Numbered from the stretch's first letter, positions 7,000 through 29,784 are shown. The stretch is DNA of 64,000 bases from a bacterium (GCA_021815445.1 JAKAGM010000001.1:3447-67446); one strand, 5' to 3'. The notes: a model not told the origin generated them from the letters alone. Translations and numbers: made by a program.

Positions 7000-9777
7000 A
7001 TGTCCTCTTCCGACGTATCTCCTACCCAAACAAAGGTTAAGGAGTCGGTGAGTGTGCTGACTCAAGAGCAGACTGCGGGGGCCGCGCACGCACGCGAAGG
7101 ACTCCATATGGATTATTTTTTTTCCCGCAAGGGTGTGCACCCCTATGATGAGATCGAATGGGAACTGCGCGAAGCCAAGATTGTCGGAAGCGACGGGAAA
7201 GTCGTTTTTGAGCAAAAAGATGTTGAATTGCCTAAGACGTGGTCGCAGCTTGCGACGAATGTTGTCGTATCCAAATATTTTCGCGGCAGGCTCGGGAGTC
7301 CCGAGCGCGAAACAAGCGTCAAGCAGATGGTATCGAGGGTAGCCGATACGATTGCCGCATGGGGGAAAGCAGGAGGCTATTTCGCCAGCGACGAGGACGC
7401 GGAGACTTTCCGCATGGAGCTTACGCATCTTCTCGTCTATCAAAAAGCGGCGTTTAACAGTCCCGTGTGGTTTAATGTCGGGGTCAAGGAACATCCGCAA
7501 TGTTCGGCCTGCTTTATCCTCTCCGTCCAGGATTCCATGGAGTCTATTTTAGATTGGATCAGGAAAGAAGGACTCATCTTTAAGGGCGGGTCCGGATCAG
7601 GCGTCAACCTCTCGACGCTCCGGTCATCGCGGGAACAGCTGTCCGGCGGCGGGTACGCGTCCGGTCCGGTCTCGTTCATGCGCGGCGCCGATGCTTCGGC
7701 CGGTTCCATAAAATCCGGCGGCACGACGCGCAGGGCGGCCAAGATGGTTATCCTCAATGTCGACCACCCCGATATCATTGAATTCATACATTGCAAAGAG
7801 GTCGAGGAAAAGAAGGCGTGGGCGCTCGGCGAACAGGGATACGATATGTCGATGAACGGTGAGGCGTGGAAGTCCATCCAATTCCAGAATGCCAACAATT
7901 CAGTGCGCGCGACGGATGAATTCATGCAGGCTGTTGAGAATGACGGTCTCTTTTCTACCCGCTCGGTAGGCAGCCACAACCCCGTAGACCAATACCGTGC
8001 CCGCGACATCCTGCGGCAGATATCCGAGGCGACCTGGGTATGCGGCGATCCCGGTTTGCAGTACGACACTACGATCAATGCGTGGCACACCTGTCCCAAT
8101 ACGGGCAGGATTAACGCCTCGAATCCGTGTTCAGAGTACATGCACCTCGATAATTCAGCGTGCAACCTCTCCTCAATCAACCTGATGAAATTCCTCAAGG
8201 ACGATGATTCTTTCGATGTCGGGGGGTACAAACGGGCGATAGATATCATGATTCTCGCGCAGGAAATACTCGTAGGATTTTCGAGCTATCCGACGGAGGA
8301 AATCTCGCGGAATGCCCATGATTACCGGGAGCTCGGTCTGGGATACGCGAACCTCGGCGCTCTTCTAATGTCATGGGGCCTGCCGTATGATTCAGACGCG
8401 GGCCGCGCGGTGTCTGCGGCTCTCACGGCGTTTCTTACCGGTGAAGCGTATGCGGAATCGGCGCGAGTAGCCGCTGTCGTCGGGCCTTTTGCCGGATACG
8501 AGAAAAATCGCGAGCCCATGCTCAATGTTATCGCAAAACACAAATTTCACCTGGATGATATCAACCGGCACTACGTCCCGGCTGAACTTTTTGCCGCCGC
8601 TGAAACCTCATGGACAGACGCACTGGAGCTTGGCAAGCACAACGGATTCAGAAACTCACAGACGACTGTCCTTGCCCCCACCGGAACGATCAGCTTCCTG
8701 ATGGATTGTGATACGACAGGCATCGAGCCCGACATAGCCCTGGTCAAATACAAGAATCTTGTCGGCGGCGGCGTCATGAAGATTGTCAACCACTCGGTGC
8801 CTCGCGCCCTGCACAGGCTCGGGTACAGCCAGGACCAGGTCGACGCTATCATAAGGTACGTCGACGACAAGGGGACTATCGAAGGAGCTCCGGAACTGAA
8901 AGAGGAACATCTCTCAGTTTTCGACTGCGCGTTCAAACCGGCGAATGGCGTCCGCTTCATCCACTACATGGGCCATATCAGGATGATGGGAGCCGCGCAA
9001 CCGTTTATCTCCGGGGCCATCTCAAAGACGGTAAACCTGCCGAAAGAAGCGACTGTCGATGATATTTCCACTGCGTATACCGAAGGGTGGAAGCAAGGCC
9101 TCAAAGCGCTCGCCATTTATCGCGACGGTTCCAAGCGCACGCAACCGCTCTCGACGGCCGATGATGATACGACCCAAAAGACGCGTGAGACAAAGCAAAA
9201 GTCATTGCGCAGACGGCTGCCGGACGAGCGCAAATCCATCACCCACAAATTCTCCGTCGGCGGCCATGAGGGGTACATCACCGCCGGGCTCTATGACGAC
9301 GGTACGCCCGGAGAAGTGTTCATTACCATGGCGAAAGAAGGCTCGACAATATCGGGGCTCATGGATGCCTTTGCTACCTCAATCTCCATCGGCCTCCAGT
9401 ACGGCGTCCCGCTCAAGACGATGGTCAATAAGTTTTCCCACATGAGGTTCGAGCCCTCAGGATTTACCGGTAACGCTGATATTCCGATAGCAAAGTCGAT
9501 TGTCGATTACATCTTCCGCTGGATGGGCAGGAAATTCCTCCCCCAGGAGGAGCAGGCGGAGGCGACAAAAGAAGCTGTCAAACCGATTGTCGAGAATGGC
9601 AATCATGACAGTGTAAAAGCAGAGACAGCGCCATCTGTTCCGTCCGCGTTCCAGCAAAAGATAACGTTCACCAACCAGGAGGACGCGCCTGCATGCCAGA
9701 CCTGCGGATCAATCATGGTCCGCAACGCGGCCTGCTACAAATGCACCAACTGCGGCGCTACAAGCGGGTGCAGCTAA
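7000..9777 (+). CDS. nrdJ: adenosylcobalamin-dependent (class II) ribonucleotide reductase
   Basis: A 925-aa protein with the NPCSEYMHLDNSACNLSSINL active-site region and a C-terminal Cys cluster (CQTCGS...CYKCTNCG). No separate beta subunit is present. Confidence 0.9.
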   Translation: MSSSDVSPTQTKVKESVSVLTQEQTAGAAHAREGLHMDYFFSRKGVHPYDEIEWELREAKIVGSDGKVVFEQKDVELPKTWSQLATNVVVSKYFRGRLGSPERETSVKQMVSRVADTIAAWGKAGGYFASDEDAETFRMELTHLLVYQKAAFNSPVWFNVGVKEHPQCSACFILSVQDSMESILDWIRKEGLIFKGGSGSGVNLSTLRSSREQLSGGGYASGPVSFMRGADASAGSIKSGGTTRRAAKMVILNVDHPDIIEFIHCKEVEEKKAWALGEQGYDMSMNGEAWKSIQFQNANNSVRATDEFMQAVENDGLFSTRSVGSHNPVDQYRARDILRQISEATWVCGDPGLQYDTTINAWHTCPNTGRINASNPCSEYMHLDNSACNLSSINLMKFLKDDDSFDVGGYKRAIDIMILAQEILVGFSSYPTEEISRNAHDYRELGLGYANLGALLMSWGLPYDSDAGRAVSAALTAFLTGEAYAESARVAAVVGPFAGYEKNREPMLNVIAKHKFHLDDINRHYVPAELFAAAETSWTDALELGKHNGFRNSQTTVLAPTGTISFLMDCDTTGIEPDIALVKYKNLVGGGVMKIVNHSVPRALHRLGYSQDQVDAIIRYVDDKGTIEGAPELKEEHLSVFDCAFKPANGVRFIHYMGHIRMMGAAQPFISGAISKTVNLPKEATVDDISTAYTEGWKQGLKALAIYRDGSKRTQPLSTADDDTTQKTRETKQKSLRRRLPDERKSITHKFSVGGHEGYITAGLYDDGTPGEVFITMAKEGSTISGLMDAFATSISIGLQYGVPLKTMVNKFSHMRFEPSGFTGNADIPIAKSIVDYIFRWMGRKFLPQEEQAEATKEAVKPIVENGNHDSVKAETAPSVPSAFQQKITFTNQEDAPACQTCGSIMVRNAACYKCTNCGATSGCS

Positions 9778-10818: not shown

Positions 10819-11250
10819 ATGACAGTTGTCGATAAAAAGAAACGCGTTCTCGATTTCATCAAACGCCAACATGTAGCCGTGTTGGCGACGGTTGACGGCG
10901 TGCGGCGCGTACCCGAGTGCGCTGTCGTTGAATTCTCAGAGACGGATAACCTTGAGATTATTTTTGACACATTTTCCTCGTACCGCAAGTACGGAAATTT
11001 GCAGACGAACCAGCGCGTTGCGCTCGTGATCGGCTGCGAGGACGACGTCACTGTCCAGTACGAGGGCGTCGCCCGCGAGGTGACCGGTGACGAACTGAAA
11101 CGGTGCCAGAAAATTCATACGGCCAAGCTTCCCGGTGCGAAAAAGTTCACGACGATGGAAGACATCAGATTTTTTCGTATTACCCCGGTGTGGATCCGCT
11201 ACGTGAATGTGTCGCTCGATCCGTGGGAAGTCTTCGAGCTTTCATTATGA
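10819..11250 (+). CDS. pyridoxamine 5'-phosphate oxidase-like FMN-binding split-barrel protein
   Basis: A 143-aa protein whose VLDFIKRQHVAVLATVDG N-terminus is typical of the PNPOx-like family. Its stop overlaps the next start (ATGA). Confidence 0.65.
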   Translation: MTVVDKKKRVLDFIKRQHVAVLATVDGVRRVPECAVVEFSETDNLEIIFDTFSSYRKYGNLQTNQRVALVIGCEDDVTVQYEGVAREVTGDELKRCQKIHTAKLPGAKKFTTMEDIRFFRITPVWIRYVNVSLDPWEVFELSL

Positions 11251-11822
11251 AGAGTACTCCCAAAAAGAAGTTTAAAGTCCTGAATCGCGGACTGACCATT
11301 GCCTATATCGGAAACGGGAAAGGGAAGACAACCGCGGCTGTCGGCGCGGCAGTCAGAGCGCGCGGCTGCGGGATGCGAGTGCTTTTTTTGCAGTTCTATA
11401 AAAGTCCCGAATGGCCCTCGGGAGAACGGCAGGCTCTCGTGAAGCTGGGCGTCAAGGTTCACGTTGTCGGCGAGGGGTTTGTCGGCATCCTCGGAGACAG
11501 AAAAAAACTTGCCGTACACAAAAAGGCCGCGGAGCGGGCGCTGAGAGAGAGCCGTAGAGCCCTTGTTTCAGGCGCATACGACCTTATTATCCTCGACGAA
11601 GCTATTTCGTGCCTCGAGCAGAAGCTGTTTACGCCTGCCCGGCTGGCGACACTCCTGAAGCTCAAACAAAAATCCACAAAAGCATCTCATGTCCACTTGA
11701 TTTTGACCGGCCACAAAAGATTTCCGCAGATACTCAAGCTCTGCGACCTGGTCACTGAGATGAAGATGGTGAAGCACCCATATTACCAAGGGTTTTTGGC
11801 GGTAAGGGGAGTGGATTATTAA
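11247..11822 (+). CDS. cobA: ATP:cob(I)alamin adenosyltransferase (CobA/BtuR type)
   Basis: P-loop GNGKGKTTAAVGAAVRA, plus LDE and VTEMKMVKHPY motifs. The start is refined to the ATG at 11247 (ATGA overlap with the previous stop). Confidence 0.85.
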   Translation: MKSTPKKKFKVLNRGLTIAYIGNGKGKTTAAVGAAVRARGCGMRVLFLQFYKSPEWPSGERQALVKLGVKVHVVGEGFVGILGDRKKLAVHKKAAERALRESRRALVSGAYDLIILDEAISCLEQKLFTPARLATLLKLKQKSTKASHVHLILTGHKRFPQILKLCDLVTEMKMVKHPYYQGFLAVRGVDY

Positions 11823-11954
11823 CCACAAAGTACTATGGACACCCCAACACCTCAGCCCACCCCACAATCCTCATCAAGCACAATGATGCGAGTCATTTTG
11901 GTAATCATTCTCATTATCGTCGGCGCGGGCGCTTACTTCTGGTGGCAGAAAGGG
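11815..11954 (+). repeat. 140-bp direct repeat, copy 1 (leader plus first 40 codons)
   Basis: Read base by base, it is identical to 13371..13510. It begins in the last 8 nt of cobA. Confidence 0.95.
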
Positions 11955-13304
11955 CAAGCAAATACGAACAGTGCGAACCTCGTCCTCAATGCCATGAACC
12001 AGAGTACCAATGCGCCCTCCAACATCAATTCGGTTGCCAACGCGAACACCACCTTGAATACCAATATCGCCGTAAATGCCAATACTCCCGCTAATCTCAA
12101 CACGGCAGTAAACACCAATACTGCGGTAAACTCAAATACCAATACCGCAGTGGATACGAGCGGGTGGCTGGCCGAGACGGCGCGATGCAGTCATGAGCCC
12201 GTATCTCAGCAAAAGGAAAGTATCTTAACTGATAACTCTGACTGGCAAGTCATACGGGTATACAGGGGTGAGCTAAAATTCTCGTACGAAGTACCTTCTA
12301 GTGCAACTTTTAATACCGGTCTGGACAGATATACGAAAACTGGGTCAGAAGAGAGGGAAGTAATATCCGAAGTAAATCTAGAAGGTATGGCTATTGATGT
12401 TAGATGGTATAAAAACAACTCTTCGTTTGAGCTGTGGACTAGGGATCATGAGAATGAGATTTATACTTCCTATATTGCCAGCTCACGTGGCGCGGCAATA
12501 TCGGAACCAGAGCAGATAGTTGTTGATGGACGCAAAACAAAAACATATGAAGTTACGAGTCCTTTTGGGTTTAAGGTAATGCTGGTTTTTGTTGAGGATG
12601 GGGATAAAATATATCAAATAGAGGTTCGGGGGCCAGCGGAGAATATGGAAAACTTCAAAGGGGATATCAATAAAGTATTAATGAGTTTTCACTTTGAAAT
12701 CCCTGATCCAGGTGAATTGATATTTACCTATCGCGAAATTGATCTGTCCTTCAGGTATCCTTCATCCGTCGGCACTCCTCAGCTTGCATGGGGTACCCCA
12801 GTGAATAATAAAAATTGGGAGAAAGCTATGATTGAAGTAGGTCAGAAAGGCCAAAGTGCTTTTTCAATAACACGGGAAGCGGATTATTATAGCTCACATG
12901 AAAATGAGTGGCTGTATACTTTTTACGGGAAAGCGGTCGATGCTAAGCAGCCTCTTTCAGATTTAATCCTTTTTATAAGTAGAGATTTCAAAAATATTCT
13001 CGGTATTTCAAATAAATGTGGTTTCGTTGAGATAGTTGAACTAGACCAATATAATACTCAAACAGCGTTAATTTATCGAGCATTTGTTCCTCATCCTGAT
13101 TATAAGGTTGTATTAGCAACTTTCGTGATAAGTACATCTTTTCCTAATCTTGAAAATAGTAATATTGATCCTAATCTTGTGATAGCCAATGATATGCTCA
13201 ATGACATTAAAATGGGTACATTTCAACAAGATATTATTCAGAATTTAGACACATTTCGTGCGATCTTACCAACAATAAAAACTGCAACACCCCTACCCCG
13301 CTGA
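11835..13304 (+). CDS. TM-anchored surface protein with an Asn-rich linker and an AT-rich unique C-terminal domain
   Basis: The N-terminus MDTPTPQPTPQSSSSTMMRVILVIILIIVGAGAYFWWQKG is identical to that of 13391..14113, followed by an N-rich linker that ends in AVDTSGW. Confidence 0.7.
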   Translation: MDTPTPQPTPQSSSSTMMRVILVIILIIVGAGAYFWWQKGQANTNSANLVLNAMNQSTNAPSNINSVANANTTLNTNIAVNANTPANLNTAVNTNTAVNSNTNTAVDTSGWLAETARCSHEPVSQQKESILTDNSDWQVIRVYRGELKFSYEVPSSATFNTGLDRYTKTGSEEREVISEVNLEGMAIDVRWYKNNSSFELWTRDHENEIYTSYIASSRGAAISEPEQIVVDGRKTKTYEVTSPFGFKVMLVFVEDGDKIYQIEVRGPAENMENFKGDINKVLMSFHFEIPDPGELIFTYREIDLSFRYPSSVGTPQLAWGTPVNNKNWEKAMIEVGQKGQSAFSITREADYYSSHENEWLYTFYGKAVDAKQPLSDLILFISRDFKNILGISNKCGFVEIVELDQYNTQTALIYRAFVPHPDYKVVLATFVISTSFPNLENSNIDPNLVIANDMLNDIKMGTFQQDIIQNLDTFRAILPTIKTATPLPR

Positions 13305-13370
13305 CTTCGATGGCGACGGCCTTTCTTAATACTTGCTGCTAGGTTACAATGGATATGTAATCTGACAGTA

Positions 13371-13510
13371 ATTATTAACCACAAAGTACTATGGACACCC
13401 CAACACCTCAGCCCACCCCACAATCCTCATCAAGCACAATGATGCGAGTCATTTTGGTAATCATTCTCATTATCGTCGGCGCGGGCGCTTACTTCTGGTG
13501 GCAGAAAGGG
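13371..13510 (+). repeat. 140-bp direct repeat, copy 2
   Basis: Identical to 11815..11954. Confidence 0.95.
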
Positions 13511-14113
13511 GATACAAAAATAAACACCGCAAACATTGCCATTAATACTACCAATAGGAACACAAATACCGTCTCCAATGCCAATTCGGCTGTGAATACC
13601 AATGTTGCCTCAAATGTCAACACTGCCGCTAATCTCAACACAGCGGTGAATGTGAATGCGGGGGCAAACTTAAACACCAACGCGGCAGTGGATACGAGCG
13701 GGTGGAAGACGTATGAGAATAGCACGTATGGGTACAACATCAAATATCCAACAGACTGGAAGGTAGTTGAGGCCACGGGGATGCTTACAGAATTCTCGCC
13801 CACGAGCAAGGATTATACCGTCGAGGGCTCGATTGCCTACCCCGTGGGGATAACAGGCTATACAGGCGCTGCATCTGATTTCTTAAGTCAGGTGTCGTCA
13901 GATAAGAAGAGTTCAGTAACCATTAATAATCAGGCTGCCACAAAGGTCATAGGATATTCGAATTCAATCTCTTATGTCTTTTCTAATCAGGCGCGAGTGC
14001 AATATCTGGTAATTGGTCCAAATAGCGCGCTGTTAAATAACGTAGATGTTTCAGATCGATCAACAATAGAATCGATGTTTGAGGCAATGCTTCGGACGTT
14101 CACAATTCAATAG
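13391..14113 (+). CDS. TM-anchored surface protein sharing its N-terminal module with 11835..13304
   Basis: Same 40-aa N-terminus and an N-rich linker ending in AVDTSGW, followed by an unrelated C-terminal domain (YENSTYGYNIKYPTDWKV...). Confidence 0.7.
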   Translation: MDTPTPQPTPQSSSSTMMRVILVIILIIVGAGAYFWWQKGDTKINTANIAINTTNRNTNTVSNANSAVNTNVASNVNTAANLNTAVNVNAGANLNTNAAVDTSGWKTYENSTYGYNIKYPTDWKVVEATGMLTEFSPTSKDYTVEGSIAYPVGITGYTGAASDFLSQVSSDKKSSVTINNQAATKVIGYSNSISYVFSNQARVQYLVIGPNSALLNNVDVSDRSTIESMFEAMLRTFTIQ

Positions 14114-14197: not shown

Positions 14198-16189
14198 ATG
14201 AGAACTGTAATGGTCGCTCTTGTTGCGCTGGTGCTGTCAGCTACCAGCGCTGTAGCAGTCGATCTAACGGAAACTGGATTTTACTACCCAACTGGCAGCC
14301 ACACATTAGGCAGCTATGCCGGATGGTTAGCAGTTCCGCCAGCTTACTTTGACGGCTACTACCATATCGGCAAAGATATTGACACCGGTGAAGTTGCGCC
14401 TGTGTACGCAATTTCGAATGGCATCGTGATCTACATCAGTTCTGGTGGATGGGGGACGAACAACAAGGGGGTGTTTGTGAGGCACACCCTTGTAGATGGG
14501 TCTCAGTTCGTTGCGCTTTACGGACACGTGAGAACAAGCAAGGTGGTGAATGACGCGGTACAAGCTGGTGTTCAATTTGCGACGATTGGGCCGTGGGATC
14601 CGACACATTTGCATTTTGGCATTCATCCTGGAGGGACTATACCCTCCGATCCATACGGTATGCTACCCTTGCCGGTGACATCGCCGTACAATGGCTGGCA
14701 GGATCCAATCGATTGGATTGCAACGCACAGTCCCGCTGGTGCTTACTCCTGCTCCTTCGTCTCCAAGTCTATCTCGCCTGCCGGTCCGTATGTTCCAGGG
14801 CAGACAGTTACCTGCCAGGTGAAGTTCAAGAACGAGGGTACGGCAACGTGGAGTAAGACAGGCGGCCAGTCGAATTACGTCGAATTGGGATCGTGCGACG
14901 GAAACGGAGGCATCGGCTACAGTTTCTTCAACTATCCCTGCACACTCCCCAATGACGGCCAAGTTCCATCATGGCTGAATTGCAAAGTGCCATGCACCTT
15001 CGTAGAATCCAATGTGCCGCATGGCAGTAATGCGACCTTCAACTTCACGGGTAAGATTAGGGACACGTTACCCAGTACATACAGCGTGTATTTCGGACCT
15101 GTCTGGAATAGCGCAATCATGTCTGGCTGGGTCGGGACGCATTACGCCGTCCAAGTCACCATCCCTGAGTCGTTCTCTACCATGACCCTTACCCCCATCG
15201 CAGGTGATTGGAACGGAGATGGAGTCTCCGAGGTCGGGGTCTATGCCGACGAGACGCAAACCTTCTATCTGGACACCAACAATGACGGGTATACGGAGTT
15301 GGAGCTTCATTACAGCTCAGCCGTAGACAAACCTTTGGCCGGCAACTGGGCTGGCGGCGGGTACTACGGCGTTGGTTTTTACCGTCCCGCCTATCGCACC
15401 TTCTGGCTGGATTATGACAACAACGGCCAGATGGACAATGGCATTGTGTTTGGTGACGGTGGAGACACGCCTTTGGCAGGTGACTGGCTTGGGAACGGCT
15501 ATTCCCGAATTGGCCTATACCGCCCTTCAACCAGGACATTCTGGCTGGACTACGACAACAACGGCACTGCAGACTTTAGCCGTGTCTTTGGAGATGCCAC
15601 GGACATTCCTATCACGGGAGACTGGGACTGTGACTTGGACTGGAACATCGGCGTTTACCGCCCGTCTACCAGGACGTTCTGGTTAGACTACAATAATGAC
15701 GGCTCGGCCGATTTCTCCCGAACCTTCGGAGACGCCGGTGATCTTCCCGTTGTCGGAGACTGGACCGGCAACTGCGGCACCAACATCGGCGTATTCCGCC
15801 CCTCCACCCAGGAATTCTGGCTCGATTACAACAACGACGGAACGGCTGACCGAGGGTTCCAGATCCAACGGATTATTCCCGGTTCGCCTAAGATCACGGC
15901 ACATGGAGAAGACAATACTCTGCCTCGGACATTCTCCCTGTCCCAGAATTACCCGAACCCGTTCAACCCGGGCACGACGATCAGGTACACCTTGCCGAGG
16001 AGTACCCACGTCGTTCTTTCCATCTACAATGTTCTGGGGCAGAAGCTGGAGACTCTGATTGATGAGCACCAGTTCGCCGGAGAGTATATCGCTTTCTGGG
16101 ACGGATCGCGCTTCGCATCGGGCATGTACTTCTACCGCCTCGTCACCGATCAGGCGGTGGAGACAAAAAAGATGATTCTTTTGAAGTAA
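14198..16189 (+). CDS. secreted M23 (LytM-type) peptidase-domain protein with tandem repeats and a T9SS C-terminal sorting domain
   Basis: Signal peptide MRTVMVALVALVLSATSAVA. M23 motifs HIGKD (HxxxD) and HLHFGIH (HxH). About five ~47-aa repeats (GDW.G.G...YRPSTRTFWLDY.N.G.AD). C-terminus QNYPNPFNPGTTIRYTLP...GMYFYRLV...ETKKMILLK. Confidence 0.8.
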   Translation: MRTVMVALVALVLSATSAVAVDLTETGFYYPTGSHTLGSYAGWLAVPPAYFDGYYHIGKDIDTGEVAPVYAISNGIVIYISSGGWGTNNKGVFVRHTLVDGSQFVALYGHVRTSKVVNDAVQAGVQFATIGPWDPTHLHFGIHPGGTIPSDPYGMLPLPVTSPYNGWQDPIDWIATHSPAGAYSCSFVSKSISPAGPYVPGQTVTCQVKFKNEGTATWSKTGGQSNYVELGSCDGNGGIGYSFFNYPCTLPNDGQVPSWLNCKVPCTFVESNVPHGSNATFNFTGKIRDTLPSTYSVYFGPVWNSAIMSGWVGTHYAVQVTIPESFSTMTLTPIAGDWNGDGVSEVGVYADETQTFYLDTNNDGYTELELHYSSAVDKPLAGNWAGGGYYGVGFYRPAYRTFWLDYDNNGQMDNGIVFGDGGDTPLAGDWLGNGYSRIGLYRPSTRTFWLDYDNNGTADFSRVFGDATDIPITGDWDCDLDWNIGVYRPSTRTFWLDYNNDGSADFSRTFGDAGDLPVVGDWTGNCGTNIGVFRPSTQEFWLDYNNDGTADRGFQIQRIIPGSPKITAHGEDNTLPRTFSLSQNYPNPFNPGTTIRYTLPRSTHVVLSIYNVLGQKLETLIDEHQFAGEYIAFWDGSRFASGMYFYRLVTDQAVETKKMILLK

Positions 16190-16583: not shown

Positions 16584-17054
16584 ATGGATAAACCTCCAAT
16601 GGTAGTAGTCAAACAAAAAGCAAAAACGAATTATGCGGCACTCGGAATCATCGCCGTCGTGGCGGCCGGCGTATTATTTTTCGGGAATGCCTATAACAAA
16701 GGAGTAACCAATGACGCCCAGAAAGCGGGCGCAGGCGTTGTTGCCGGAGTAGAGTCAGTCCAGCAGGAAGCGACGCTCACCATCAACAACGGCAAAACCA
16801 CCCGCAGTATGGTCATGACCCTCAATCCGGGCGTCTCTGCGCTTGATCTCGTCATCCGGGCGGGAATGAGGGAAAACTTTACAGTCGAAACGAAGAAATA
16901 TGACTTCGGGACCATCGTCGAATCTATCGACGGCGTGCGCGGCGGCGACCAGAAGAAATACTGGCTGTACTATGTGAACGGCAAACAGGCGACAGTCGGC
17001 GCGGATGCGTACAAAGTGCAATCCGGGGATACCATAGACTTCAGATTCGAATAA
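16584..17054 (+). CDS. DUF4430 (transcobalamin beta-domain-like) putative extracellular cobalamin-binding protein
   Basis: TM anchor followed by ...DGVRGGDQKKYWLYYVNGKQATVGADAYKVQSGDTIDFRFE, typical of DUF4430. It is the first gene after the B12 riboswitch. Confidence 0.7.
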   Translation: MDKPPMVVVKQKAKTNYAALGIIAVVAAGVLFFGNAYNKGVTNDAQKAGAGVVAGVESVQQEATLTINNGKTTRSMVMTLNPGVSALDLVIRAGMRENFTVETKKYDFGTIVESIDGVRGGDQKKYWLYYVNGKQATVGADAYKVQSGDTIDFRFE

Positions 17055-17059
17055 TTTCC

Positions 17060-17584
17060 ATGAAAAAAAAGTACTCCATTGCCGTAGCTCTCGCATTGAT
17101 TCTGGTCGGGATGGCCGTCCGTCTCCTTCCGCATCCGGCCAATTTTACCCCCCTTGCCGCAATAGCGCTTTTTTCCGGCGTGTATCTTCCCCGCAGGTTT
17201 GCTCTCGTTGTGCCTCTCGCCGTGATGGTGGCTTCTGATGCGTTGATTGGCTTTCACAACCTCGTACTCTTTACCTGGGGATCCTTCGCGCTGATCGGAG
17301 TGATCGGCTGGTGGGTACAAAAGCATAAGCACGTCACTACGGTCATCGGCGGGGCGCTTGCCGGGTCTCTGCTCTTTTACCTCGTGACTAACTGGGCCGT
17401 GATGCAATTCGGGACTATGTACCCGCACACCATCTCGGGATTACTTGGCTCGTATGCTGCGGGGATACCTTTTTTCCGCAACATGCTTCTCGGAGACCTT
17501 TTTTACACGTCGACCTTTTTCGGGGCCTATGAATTGGCTGAGCGGCTGGGCGTGCGGATAGGAGCCCGCGCAGAAATTCGGTAA
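17060..17584 (+). CDS. small polytopic membrane protein, putative corrinoid transporter component (ECF-S-like)
   Basis: A 174-aa protein with about 5-6 TM segments and the motif RLLPHPANFTPLAAIALFSG. It starts 5 nt after the DUF4430 gene in the same riboswitch-controlled unit. The function is inferred from context only. Confidence 0.5.
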   Translation: MKKKYSIAVALALILVGMAVRLLPHPANFTPLAAIALFSGVYLPRRFALVVPLAVMVASDALIGFHNLVLFTWGSFALIGVIGWWVQKHKHVTTVIGGALAGSLLFYLVTNWAVMQFGTMYPHTISGLLGSYAAGIPFFRNMLLGDLFYTSTFFGAYELAERLGVRIGARAEIR

Positions 17585-29253: not shown

Positions 29254-29784
29254 ATGTCGCGGCCCTTTCACTTACACGTAGAAGAAGGATATTATTTTCT
29301 TACTGCTCGGACTCAGCAAGGATACCCGTTTTTACATAGCCAAAATGCCAAAAGAATTCTCTTAGGATCAATTGAACAATCGGTTCAACAATGCACGATT
29401 AAACTTTTTGCGTGGGTAATAATGGATAATCATTACCACATTCTTATCGGTACCGATAGGGGGCAAAGAATACAACAGCTTATGCAGCTGATTCATGGAA
29501 GAAGCTCAAGACGTCTACGAAAGTTTAATCAAACGGAGGGCAGACTGATCAGTCTGCCCTCCACGGGGTGGAAAGTCTGGCAAAATTACTGGGACATATG
29601 TATCCGTGATGAGGCAGATTTCTTTACCCACCTGAACTATATCCACCACAACCCGGTCAAGCACGGATTAGTGAGAAGGATGGAGGACTACCCATTTTCA
29701 AGCTATAGACAATACGTTCAAACAGAGGGTTCTCAGTGGCTCGACAGCTCCTTTGAGACTTATCCCGTCATTGACTTTACATAG
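29254..29784 (+). CDS. IS200-like Y1 HUH transposase / REP-associated tyrosine transposase (RAYT)-like
   Basis: HUH motif NHYHILI, downstream YIHHNPVKHGLV with the catalytic-Tyr region, 176 aa. I saw no flanking terminal hairpins. Confidence 0.75.
   Translation: MSRPFHLHVEEGYYFLTARTQQGYPFLHSQNAKRILLGSIEQSVQQCTIKLFAWVIMDNHYHILIGTDRGQRIQQLMQLIHGRSSRRLRKFNQTEGRLISLPSTGWKVWQNYWDICIRDEADFFTHLNYIHHNPVKHGLVRRMEDYPFSSYRQYVQTEGSQWLDSSFETYPVIDFT

Follow-up and report, generated by a model that had tools for sequence, protein, structure and literature searches.

A perfect 140-nt direct repeat at the 5′ ends of two tandem PsbP-like envelope-protein genes of a Patescibacteria bacterium, probably left by an old partial duplication and recent recombination

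In Helicobacter pylori, recombination in the 5′ region of babA, babB and babC (~60−240 bp from the start codon) exchanges this part between the genes, and their expression properties with it (PMC4552749), and in the lpl cluster of Staphylococcus aureus a conserved nucleotide block inside each open reading frame (ORF) acts as the homologous recombination site at which the variable parts are reshuffled (PMC2568036). Here we analyzed a pair of neighboring genes of similar design in a 64,000-nt stretch of DNA (GCA_021815445.1, JAKAGM010000001.1:3447−67446; hereafter the window, with positions counted from its first letter) from a Patescibacteria (candidate phyla radiation, CPR) bacterium with a genome of ~0.88 Mb; the homologues of the encoded proteins are annotated as Patescibacteria. 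The two genes, gene 1 and gene 2, lie in tandem downstream of cobA, open with the same 140-nt module and continue into different ectodomains. Our analysis points to an old partial duplication followed by a recent intrachromosomal recombination, that is, gene conversion, of the 140 nt, a history that we consider probable.

The identity of the two copies, first reported in a first-pass annotation made from the sequence alone, was confirmed base for base: positions 11815−11954 equal positions 13371−13510 over exactly 140 nt in direct orientation, and each copy comprises, as that annotation had it, a 20-nt leader together with codons 1−40 of gene 1 or gene 2, respectively. The copies are spaced by 1556 nt, and the bases flanking the repeat mismatch immediately on both sides (g/a on the left, c/g on the right). 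Alignment confined all nucleotide homology between the two genes to 11815−12167 and 13371−13705, a shared segment that starts with the 20-nt leader and ends with AVDTSGW, at codon 111 (gene 1) or 105 (gene 2); outside this segment the sequences on both sides are unrelated at the nucleotide level. Along the segment, identity changed from 140/140 in the module to 50/82 (61%), followed by an 18-nt indel, and then to 90/113 (80%) including AVDTSGW, so that the linkers behind the repeat had indeed diverged. Taken together, 140 of the 195 positions outside the module are identical (72%), and at this rate the chance of 140 straight identities is 0.72^140, or ~7e-21; even at 80% identity it is ~3e-14. 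The module is a sharp-bordered tract of far higher identity than the homology flanking it, as is characteristic of gene conversion. The sharp discontinuity between 100 and 72% identity, far beyond chance, argues for a recent intrachromosomal recombination between the copies, most simply the gene conversion that had been proposed in the first-pass annotation.

The features of the locus are listed below; all are on the forward strand (+), and GC3 is the GC content at third codon positions.
11247..11822, +, cobA (ATP:corrinoid adenosyltransferase); Pfam CobA_CobO_BtuR, E = 5e-49, and NCBIfam cobA
11815..11954, +, repeat copy 1: leader and gene 1 codons 1−40; GC3 0.625
11835..13304, +, gene 1, 489 aa, evidently chimeric protein with a predicted anchor; ORF, identical to P0004 from Met17, distant relatives P0006−P0012
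11955..12167, +, linker 1 and AVDTSGW junction; homologous to 13511−13705 (72%), GC3 0.62
12231..12749 (approximate), +, gene 1 domain A, divergent PsbP-like with its own DNSDW start; phmmer matches P0006, P0007, P0010 and P0012, GC3 0.37
12750..13304, +, gene 1 domain B, C-terminal, ~185 aa; alignment with P0006−P0011, GC3 0.27
13305..13370, +, 66-nt spacer separating gene 1 from repeat copy 2; not homologous to the sequence that precedes copy 1
13371..13510, +, repeat copy 2: 8-nt cobA tail, 12-nt spacer and gene 2 codons 1−40; identical to copy 1
13391..14113, +, gene 2, 240 aa: module, Asn-rich linker, AVDTSGW and one PsbP-like ectodomain; ORF, P0001, homologues P0002 and P0003
13706−14113, +, gene 2 ectodomain, PsbP-like; homologue P0003 passes Pfam PsbP_2
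14198..16189, +, M23-peptidase-like secreted protein with repeats and Por_Secre_tail; Pfam and NCBIfam

The second block of identity described in the first-pass annotation, 21 nt at 12147−12167 and 13685−13705 encoding AVDTSGW, was also found, and it marks a true junction in that all homology between the two genes stops exactly there. Taken alone, however, the block is unremarkable, because it encodes a conserved peptide motif and because the length of the run is within chance (~0.09 such runs expected at 77% identity). A 25-mer scan of the window detected no second exact direct repeat of at least 25 nt, and a 14-mer scan of both strands detected no third copy of the module in the 64 kb. A degenerate GAGAYFWWQKG pattern gave 0 matches in the GTDB species representatives, a set to which the source genome evidently does not belong. 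No tandem repeats were found at 11−16.5 kb, nor did any significant inverted repeats pair gene 1 with gene 2.

At the protein level the module corresponds to a putative cytoplasmic tail, MDTPTPQPTPQSSSST, and a hydrophobic helix, MMRVILVIILIIVGAGAYFWWQKG. The database gene calls begin both genes at Met17 (P0001 for gene 2 and P0004 for gene 1), and the Met1-start versions accordingly have no exact database record. The MDTP/MDNP-type N-terminus is kept in relatives, and this conservation makes Met1, the start chosen in the first-pass annotation, preferable to Met17. A scan for promoters and terminators returned counts at the shuffled background; the sole strong promoter-like site, at 13027−13055, falls within gene 1 and permits no interpretation by itself.

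The history that we favor would consist of two steps. An older duplication would have placed an anchor-linker-junction segment, the copies of which are now ~72−80% identical, before two different ectodomains. A recent RecA-type non-reciprocal recombination would then have made the first 140 nt identical, as far as the border of the duplication. As a consequence, both proteins would share the same translation start region and membrane anchor while exposing different PsbP-like ectodomains, and the conserved neighborhood suggests that both probably act together with the downstream M23-peptidase-like protein. Because of the repeat, homologous recombination could also delete the unique part of gene 1: as had been noted before, an exchange between the direct copies would remove 1556 bp and leave cobA, the module and the gene 2 ectodomain in a row. 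Such a deletion should be as infrequent as at any other direct repeat of 140 nt; it is probably a by-product of the repeat and not a designed switch.

Gene 1 reads, from its 5′ end, as module, Asn-rich linker, AVDTSGW, a 21-aa spacer, the PsbP-like domain A and the C-terminal domain B, and its base composition changes along this order. The GC3 of 0.625 in the module and 0.62 in linker 1 with the junction is close to the window reference (0.59 ± 0.07, 43 ORFs), but it drops to 0.37 in domain A and 0.27 in domain B; gene 1 has the lowest GC content of the 43 window ORFs, and domain B is its lowest-GC stretch. The ectodomain is joined just past the conserved domain-start motif. The best relative of gene 1, P0006, is encoded on a contig of 38% GC, in a row of three anchored genes with MDQQ starts. 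Judged from the genome-like GC3 of its 5′ part and the foreign GC3 of its ectodomain, gene 1 is evidently a chimera in which the resident anchor and linker were joined to a two-domain ectodomain from a low-GC relative. A search for a phage origin found no relatives of the low-GC cassette or of the module in viral contigs.

The left edge of the repeat carries information on where the shared segment came from. The first 8 nt of the repeat (ATTATTAA, Asp-Tyr-stop) are the last 8 nt of cobA, TAA included, and the cobA product aligned to the final position of the Pfam profile. Since repeat copy 2 carries this cobA tail, the shared segment was copied from the site adjoining cobA, and the left end of the repeat is a duplication breakpoint inside cobA and not an arbitrary end of a conversion tract. 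The same observations could be accommodated by a recent cassette integration or segmental copy-paste event, in which gene 1 or gene 2 had once been alternative cobA-adjacent alleles with the same anchor, and a circularized or tandemly copied piece consisting of module, gene 1 body and spacer recombined in a Campbell-type manner, leaving the module on both sides. Such an event would produce the repeat-insert-repeat structure, the cobA tail of copy 2 and the hard homology boundary at the left end of the repeat; it would also fit the foreign composition of the insert, and the linker identity of 61−80% could be allelic divergence carried in with the fragment. We nevertheless regard integration as unlikely, since the GC3 of linker 1 is genome-like (0.62) and the foreign part begins only at ~12.2 kb, so that the incoming piece would itself have been chimeric, and since an illegitimate circularization or a junction at 13370/13371 would be required. 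In addition, no single-gene variant is on record, both proteins being found on the same 7−8 contigs.

To place the two proteins, we compared them with sequence and structure collections, and both appear to belong to a Patescibacteria-wide family of N-terminally anchored envelope proteins. In this family, the MDxP tail is followed by a transmembrane helix with GxGxY, then by a linker rich in Asn/Thr and by at least one PsbP-like domain starting with DTS(G/D)W...YP..W. Among 5.8 billion proteins, the homologues of gene 2 were the protein itself (from Met17), P0002 (47%) and P0003 (41%), the closest homologue thus being only 47% identical, with no close relative in the collections searched. These homologues and the paralogue encoded at L002, a locus of another Patescibacteria species described below, have in common an MD(T/N)P tail, a helix with an invariant G..G.Y, an Asn/Thr spacer and a ~140-aa domain headed by (V/I)DTSGWKTY...Y.YP..W. 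The motif [VI][DE]T[SA][GE]WK[TS]Y was found at 20 genome loci and 35 metagenome loci, mostly from Patescibacteria. Two other products of the window, encoded at 1364−2494 (function not assigned) and 17691−18620 (polysaccharide deacetylase), likewise combine an N-terminal helix with a subsequent low-complexity spacer rich in Asn/Thr, which suggests that the Asn/Thr spacer is a general feature of the envelope proteins of this genome.

Neither protein had a Pfam match (E ≤ 0.1), and gene 2 matched NCBIfam PsbP with E = 0.0027 at 17 bits, below the cut-off of 60. Pfam PF18933 (PsbP_2, cut-off 27) was passed by the gene 2 homologue P0003 (31.0 bits) and by a 213-aa protein encoded at L009, a locus of a further lineage (27.3 bits). 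Profile A4, built from eight gene-2-type domains, had cyanobacterial PsbP 2xb3 as its best match in the PDB, at a weak E = 0.008, followed by 2lnj at E = 0.023. For gene 1, residues ~216−321 matched P0012 with E = 1.5e-5 (phmmer, 1.8e9 proteins), and P0012 is a tandem PsbP_2 protein (95 bits). Comparison of the gene-2-type and gene 1 domain A profiles with hhalign aligned the first 25 columns only, at 94% probability. HMMER searches with the part of gene 1 behind the linker recovered seven relatives among 1.8 billion representatives (27−34% identity), built of an N-terminal helix, an N/T-rich spacer, 2−4 domains each starting with DTS(D/G)W and a ~190-aa C-terminal domain; in gene 1 itself the shared AVDTSGW is followed by a 21-residue spacer and the gene's own DNSDW, at which the similarity to these relatives starts. 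The profile of the gene 1 ectodomain family had no match among PDB sequences. The statement of the first-pass annotation that the C-terminal domains are unrelated did not hold at this level: AVDTSGW and DTSDW are the conserved start of a PsbP-like domain, and relatives of both ectodomains pass PsbP_2. With a gene 2 homologue (P0003) that passes PsbP_2 and a gene 1 match to the tandem PsbP_2 protein P0012, the two ectodomains would be distant superfamily relatives, not recent paralogues.

Domain B, which carries the motifs ..YY..E..W..TFY.K and ..E..YRA.VPH, has no assigned function and gave no match to Pfam or to PDB sequences. Its relatives in P0006−P0011 form a family with the pattern NYYGRYE..W.NTFYSK...EFYEL..YG..AL.YRV.IPH; in anchored PsbP-like proteins with several domains, this one always comes last.

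Pairs of this kind recur elsewhere. The arrangement of two anchored PsbP-like genes and a subsequent M23/Por_Secre_tail gene was also present in two other Patescibacteria lineages. In one of them (L002/L004), the adjacent paralogues, of 240 and 255 aa, and the following M23/Por_Secre_tail gene sit after murE, a genomic context different from that of the window; L004 is a SPAdes NODE contig. The anchors of these paralogues are identical at 28 of 29 residues and at 85% of the nucleotides over 87 nt, and the remaining protein is highly diverged. Neighboring genes at L016 (Saccharibacteria) share 168 nt at 84%. The anchor itself is conserved across lineages (IVGAGAYF in the window, ILGAGAYF at L025 and AAGYGVYAY at L002), alike within a genome (identical in the window, 28/29 at L002) and different between these two distant genomes. 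Our survey of 55 related loci found homogenized adjacent anchors in L002/L004 only and, more loosely, in L016, indicating that the pattern is recurrent but not general. The anchor thus appears to be a constrained functional module of the family, and homogenization of its nucleotide sequence an occasional extra and not the rule.

Several further observations were made at these loci. The 38% GC CPR contig L060 carries three adjacent anchored genes at 1275−6187 (551, 319 and 728 aa), all with MDQQ starts, and within the 728-aa gene the DTSDWLTYEN-coding domain starts are 88−91% identical over 33−34 nt. At L004, tandem repeats of 120−250 nt that are 94−100% identical occupy 8840−9523, ~1.1 kb downstream of the PsbP-like pair. 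At L009, a 49-nt stretch that is 84% identical (5725−5773 and 7165−7213) precedes the start codons of both PsbP-like genes and might be a promoter or leader common to them, even though the encoded N-termini are unlike. The M23/Por_Secre_tail gene follows a PsbP-like pair in three lineages and three contexts (14198−16189 in the window, 10858−12381 at L002 and 7982−10018 at L009).

The family-wide recurrence of anchor and junction bears on the suggestion, made in the first-pass annotation, of a “shufflable anchor-plus-variable-ectodomain system”. We could not sustain it, as the 64 kb contain two direct copies, no neighboring recombinase and no promoterless cassettes. In its strict form, the suggestion would make this a programmed surface-variation system, with the module and the DTSGW junction maintained as recombination sites for the exchange of ectodomain cassettes. 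Anchor and junction motifs are indeed family-wide and partly alike at the nucleotide level (33−34 nt at 88−91% in L060), a foreign ectodomain is joined just past the junction in gene 1, and tandem arrays of such genes exist in other CPR genomes. Yet the two copies, without a third module in the 64 kb, both head complete genes of the expressed type, and because they are direct repeats, recombination between them gives irreversible deletion only. The neighboring genes include no recombinase, invertase or reverse transcriptase; the contigs on record show no variant arrangement, and the 21-nt identity at the junction is within chance. We consider a programmed system very improbable. A site-specific shufflon, an invertible locus or a cassette locus was likewise set aside, given the direct repeats, the lack of a recombinase and the completeness of both genes. 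In a less restrictive version, the resident 5′ segment might serve as a docking platform that captures horizontally transferred ectodomain cassettes, which the identical modules would make excisable and re-insertable, gene 1 being freshly captured. This idea has, in our judgment, a small chance of being right; if it were, it would mean a recombination-based renewal of the cell surface in host-dependent bacteria.

The identical tract spans the translation start region of both genes, which raised the question of selection on the nucleotide sequence itself, such as on an RNA element, an overlapping gene or a regulatory site in the leader and the first 120 coding bases. The module RNA folded worse than shuffled controls (z = +1.45), and a search of 11000−14500 against Rfam returned only mir-1000 at 22 bits, E = 0.11, against a gathering score of 50. 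Reverse-strand ORFs over the module are short and extend into unrelated sequence, and the counterpart region at L002 shows many synonymous differences. Such selection is hardly credible as the source of the identity. An RNA element or riboswitch in the module was rejected on the fold z-score together with the absence of an Rfam match above the gathering score.

A number of points weigh against the history of old duplication and recent conversion. A conversion test that calls for homologous flanks on both sides found homology continuing to the right, in the linker, but none to the left of 11815/13371. A tract reaching exactly to the left limit of homology would be unusual for classical conversion; it would fit conversion as far as the border of an old duplication and, equally well, a duplication or integration junction. 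The donor and the recipient, and likewise a recent conversion and a copy-paste or Campbell-type event, are indistinguishable from the present sequence. Among the relatives, the L002 anchors differ at 12 synonymous sites, indicating that their likeness stems from protein-level constraint or from a conversion that is old and not recent, and L009 has the same three-gene block with unlike N-termini. The membrane topology and surface exposure of both proteins are predictions from sequence. AlphaFold gave models of low confidence, with a pLDDT of 45 for gene 2 (alignment of three sequences) and of 36 for gene 1 (one sequence), and the proposed functional tie to the M23 gene derives from gene neighborhood in only three lineages. 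Finally, the repeat length of 140 equals k−1 of a MEGAHIT k141 assembly, a coincidence of ~1 in 100 if the repeat is real.

This last point concerns the assembly. The window is identical over 20,675 nt to the 877,264-nt ENA contig k141_1660939, the name of which stands for MEGAHIT with a final k = 141. In the MEGAHIT graph, vertices are k-mers and edges are (k+1)-mers, so that 140 nt is the longest perfect repeat that can be threaded at k = 141. The tandem arrangement, or the extent of the identity, could therefore have been made or shaped by the assembler or by a mixture of strains, and the exact match of the repeat to k−1 in a record of this name speaks for it; moreover, all records with the proteins are NCBI or ENA entries, possibly the products of a single pipeline. 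On the other hand, each 142-mer made of flank, 140 nt and flank must exist in reads, as follows from general knowledge of de Bruijn graphs, and we conceived of no mechanism by which an assembler would homogenize diverged copies or invent the junction between spacer and module. The flanking sequences are really distinct and not almost identical stretches set apart by an error; both proteins recur on the same 7−8 long contigs (0.05−0.9 Mb, with mostly the same neighboring proteins reported), and the SPAdes contig L004 has a similar tandem pair with similar anchors. An assembly artefact is, on balance, rather improbable; still, a perfect k−1 repeat in a de Bruijn contig calls for read-level confirmation before it carries an evolutionary argument.

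Upstream of the two genes lie FtsA, FtsZ, NrdR, the B12-dependent NrdJ, an HD hydrolase, a PNPOx-like protein and CobA, and downstream the M23/Por_Secre_tail protein, DUF4430, DUF6580 and a polysaccharide deacetylase. A cobalamin theme runs through 6539−11822 and 16584−17584 of the window, with NrdJ at 7000−9777, DUF4430 at 16584−17054 and the DUF6580 membrane protein at 17060−17584; gene 1, gene 2 and the M23 gene (11835−16189) sit as a block between CobA and DUF4430 and may have been inserted into a corrinoid salvage or uptake cluster. The C-terminal Por_Secre_tail domain of the M23 protein, a sorting domain of the kind used in type IX secretion (T9SS), was identified by PF18962 (31.1 bits, cut-off 27) and TIGR04183 (42.9 bits, cut-off 23). 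Patescibacteria are not known to possess a T9SS, and the domain may simply be a beta-sandwich tail. Within the M23 gene, at ~15325−15849, internal repeats with an offset of 138 nt and ~66% identity encode units of the form FWLDYDNNG..ADFSR.FGD..D.P..GDW with an FG-GAP/VCBS-like appearance.

Elsewhere in the window, two perfect palindromes, GGAGGGCAGACTGATCAGTCTGCCCTCC (28 nt) and ACCCCGTCATTCGCGAATGACGGGGT (26 nt), at 29536−29563 and 41313−41340, may be hairpin terminators or binding sites. Three ORFs of low GC content (38630−39280, 29254−29784 and 45950−46588; 0.43−0.46 against 0.525 ± 0.04) may have been acquired horizontally.

At the level of single bases, the locus illustrates the rebuilding of envelope proteins in a genome of less than 1 Mb from Patescibacteria, a group whose surface biology is almost uncharted. 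It also delineates a widespread, uncharacterized family that stands next to an M23/Por_Secre_tail gene in three lineages and includes a C-terminal domain without a Pfam or PDB match. In the literature collection searched, no paper connected gene conversion to Patescibacteria or PsbP to CPR bacteria. The type of event is known already, namely ordinary gene-family evolution: neighboring paralogues stay partly identical through recombination, and the joining of a resident anchor to an ectodomain gained by horizontal transfer is common domain shuffling.

Two described systems appear to be the closest parallels. Like the window locus, the bab genes of H. pylori are paralogous surface genes with near-identical 5′ parts and divergent middles, in which conversion gives rise to chimeric adhesin genes (PMC4552749); unlike it, they occupy dispersed loci, with chimeras and alternative genotypes documented among strains and a known effect of the 5′ swap on regulation through CT-repeat phase variation. 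The lpl genes of S. aureus (Tsuru and Kobayashi 2008) are likewise tandem paralogous envelope-protein genes with a conserved block. There, however, the copies are many, the block is central and shuffling was shown across more than ten genomes, whereas the window has two copies and a 5′ block in one sequence.

The ectodomains resemble PsbP (PF18933 PsbP_2, PF01789; CyanoP 2xb3, 2lnj) in the start motif W.TY.N....F...YP..W and in domain length. In contrast to PsbP, the window proteins fall below the Pfam cut-offs, carry an N-terminal anchor and an Asn-rich spacer, adjoin an M23 gene and come from non-photosynthetic Patescibacteria.

A shared 5′ signal or anchor combined with variable 3′ surface parts is also known from small-genome, host-dependent bacteria, in the vsa genes of Mycoplasma pulmonis and the vlp genes of Mycoplasma hyorhinis. 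The former are switched by inversion through a dedicated recombinase and have silent cassettes lacking the 5′ part, and the latter by slippage of a poly-A tract in the promoter, features not present at the window locus. Diversity-generating retroelements (DGRs) are common in CPR bacteria, and the window resembles them in having a stretch rich in Asn codons, variable between conserved blocks, in a CPR surface protein; unlike in a DGR, this stretch is a low-complexity spacer and not a C-terminal ligand-binding fold. A DGR was rejected for the locus: the 66 linker mismatches fall into all substitution classes (C/T 29, C/G 13, A/G 15) and codon positions without an adenine bias, and no reverse transcriptase is encoded within 10 kb on either side. 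Set beside the bab and lpl genes, the window locus would represent a two-copy case of a known kind of recombination, in a lineage where such cases have not been described.

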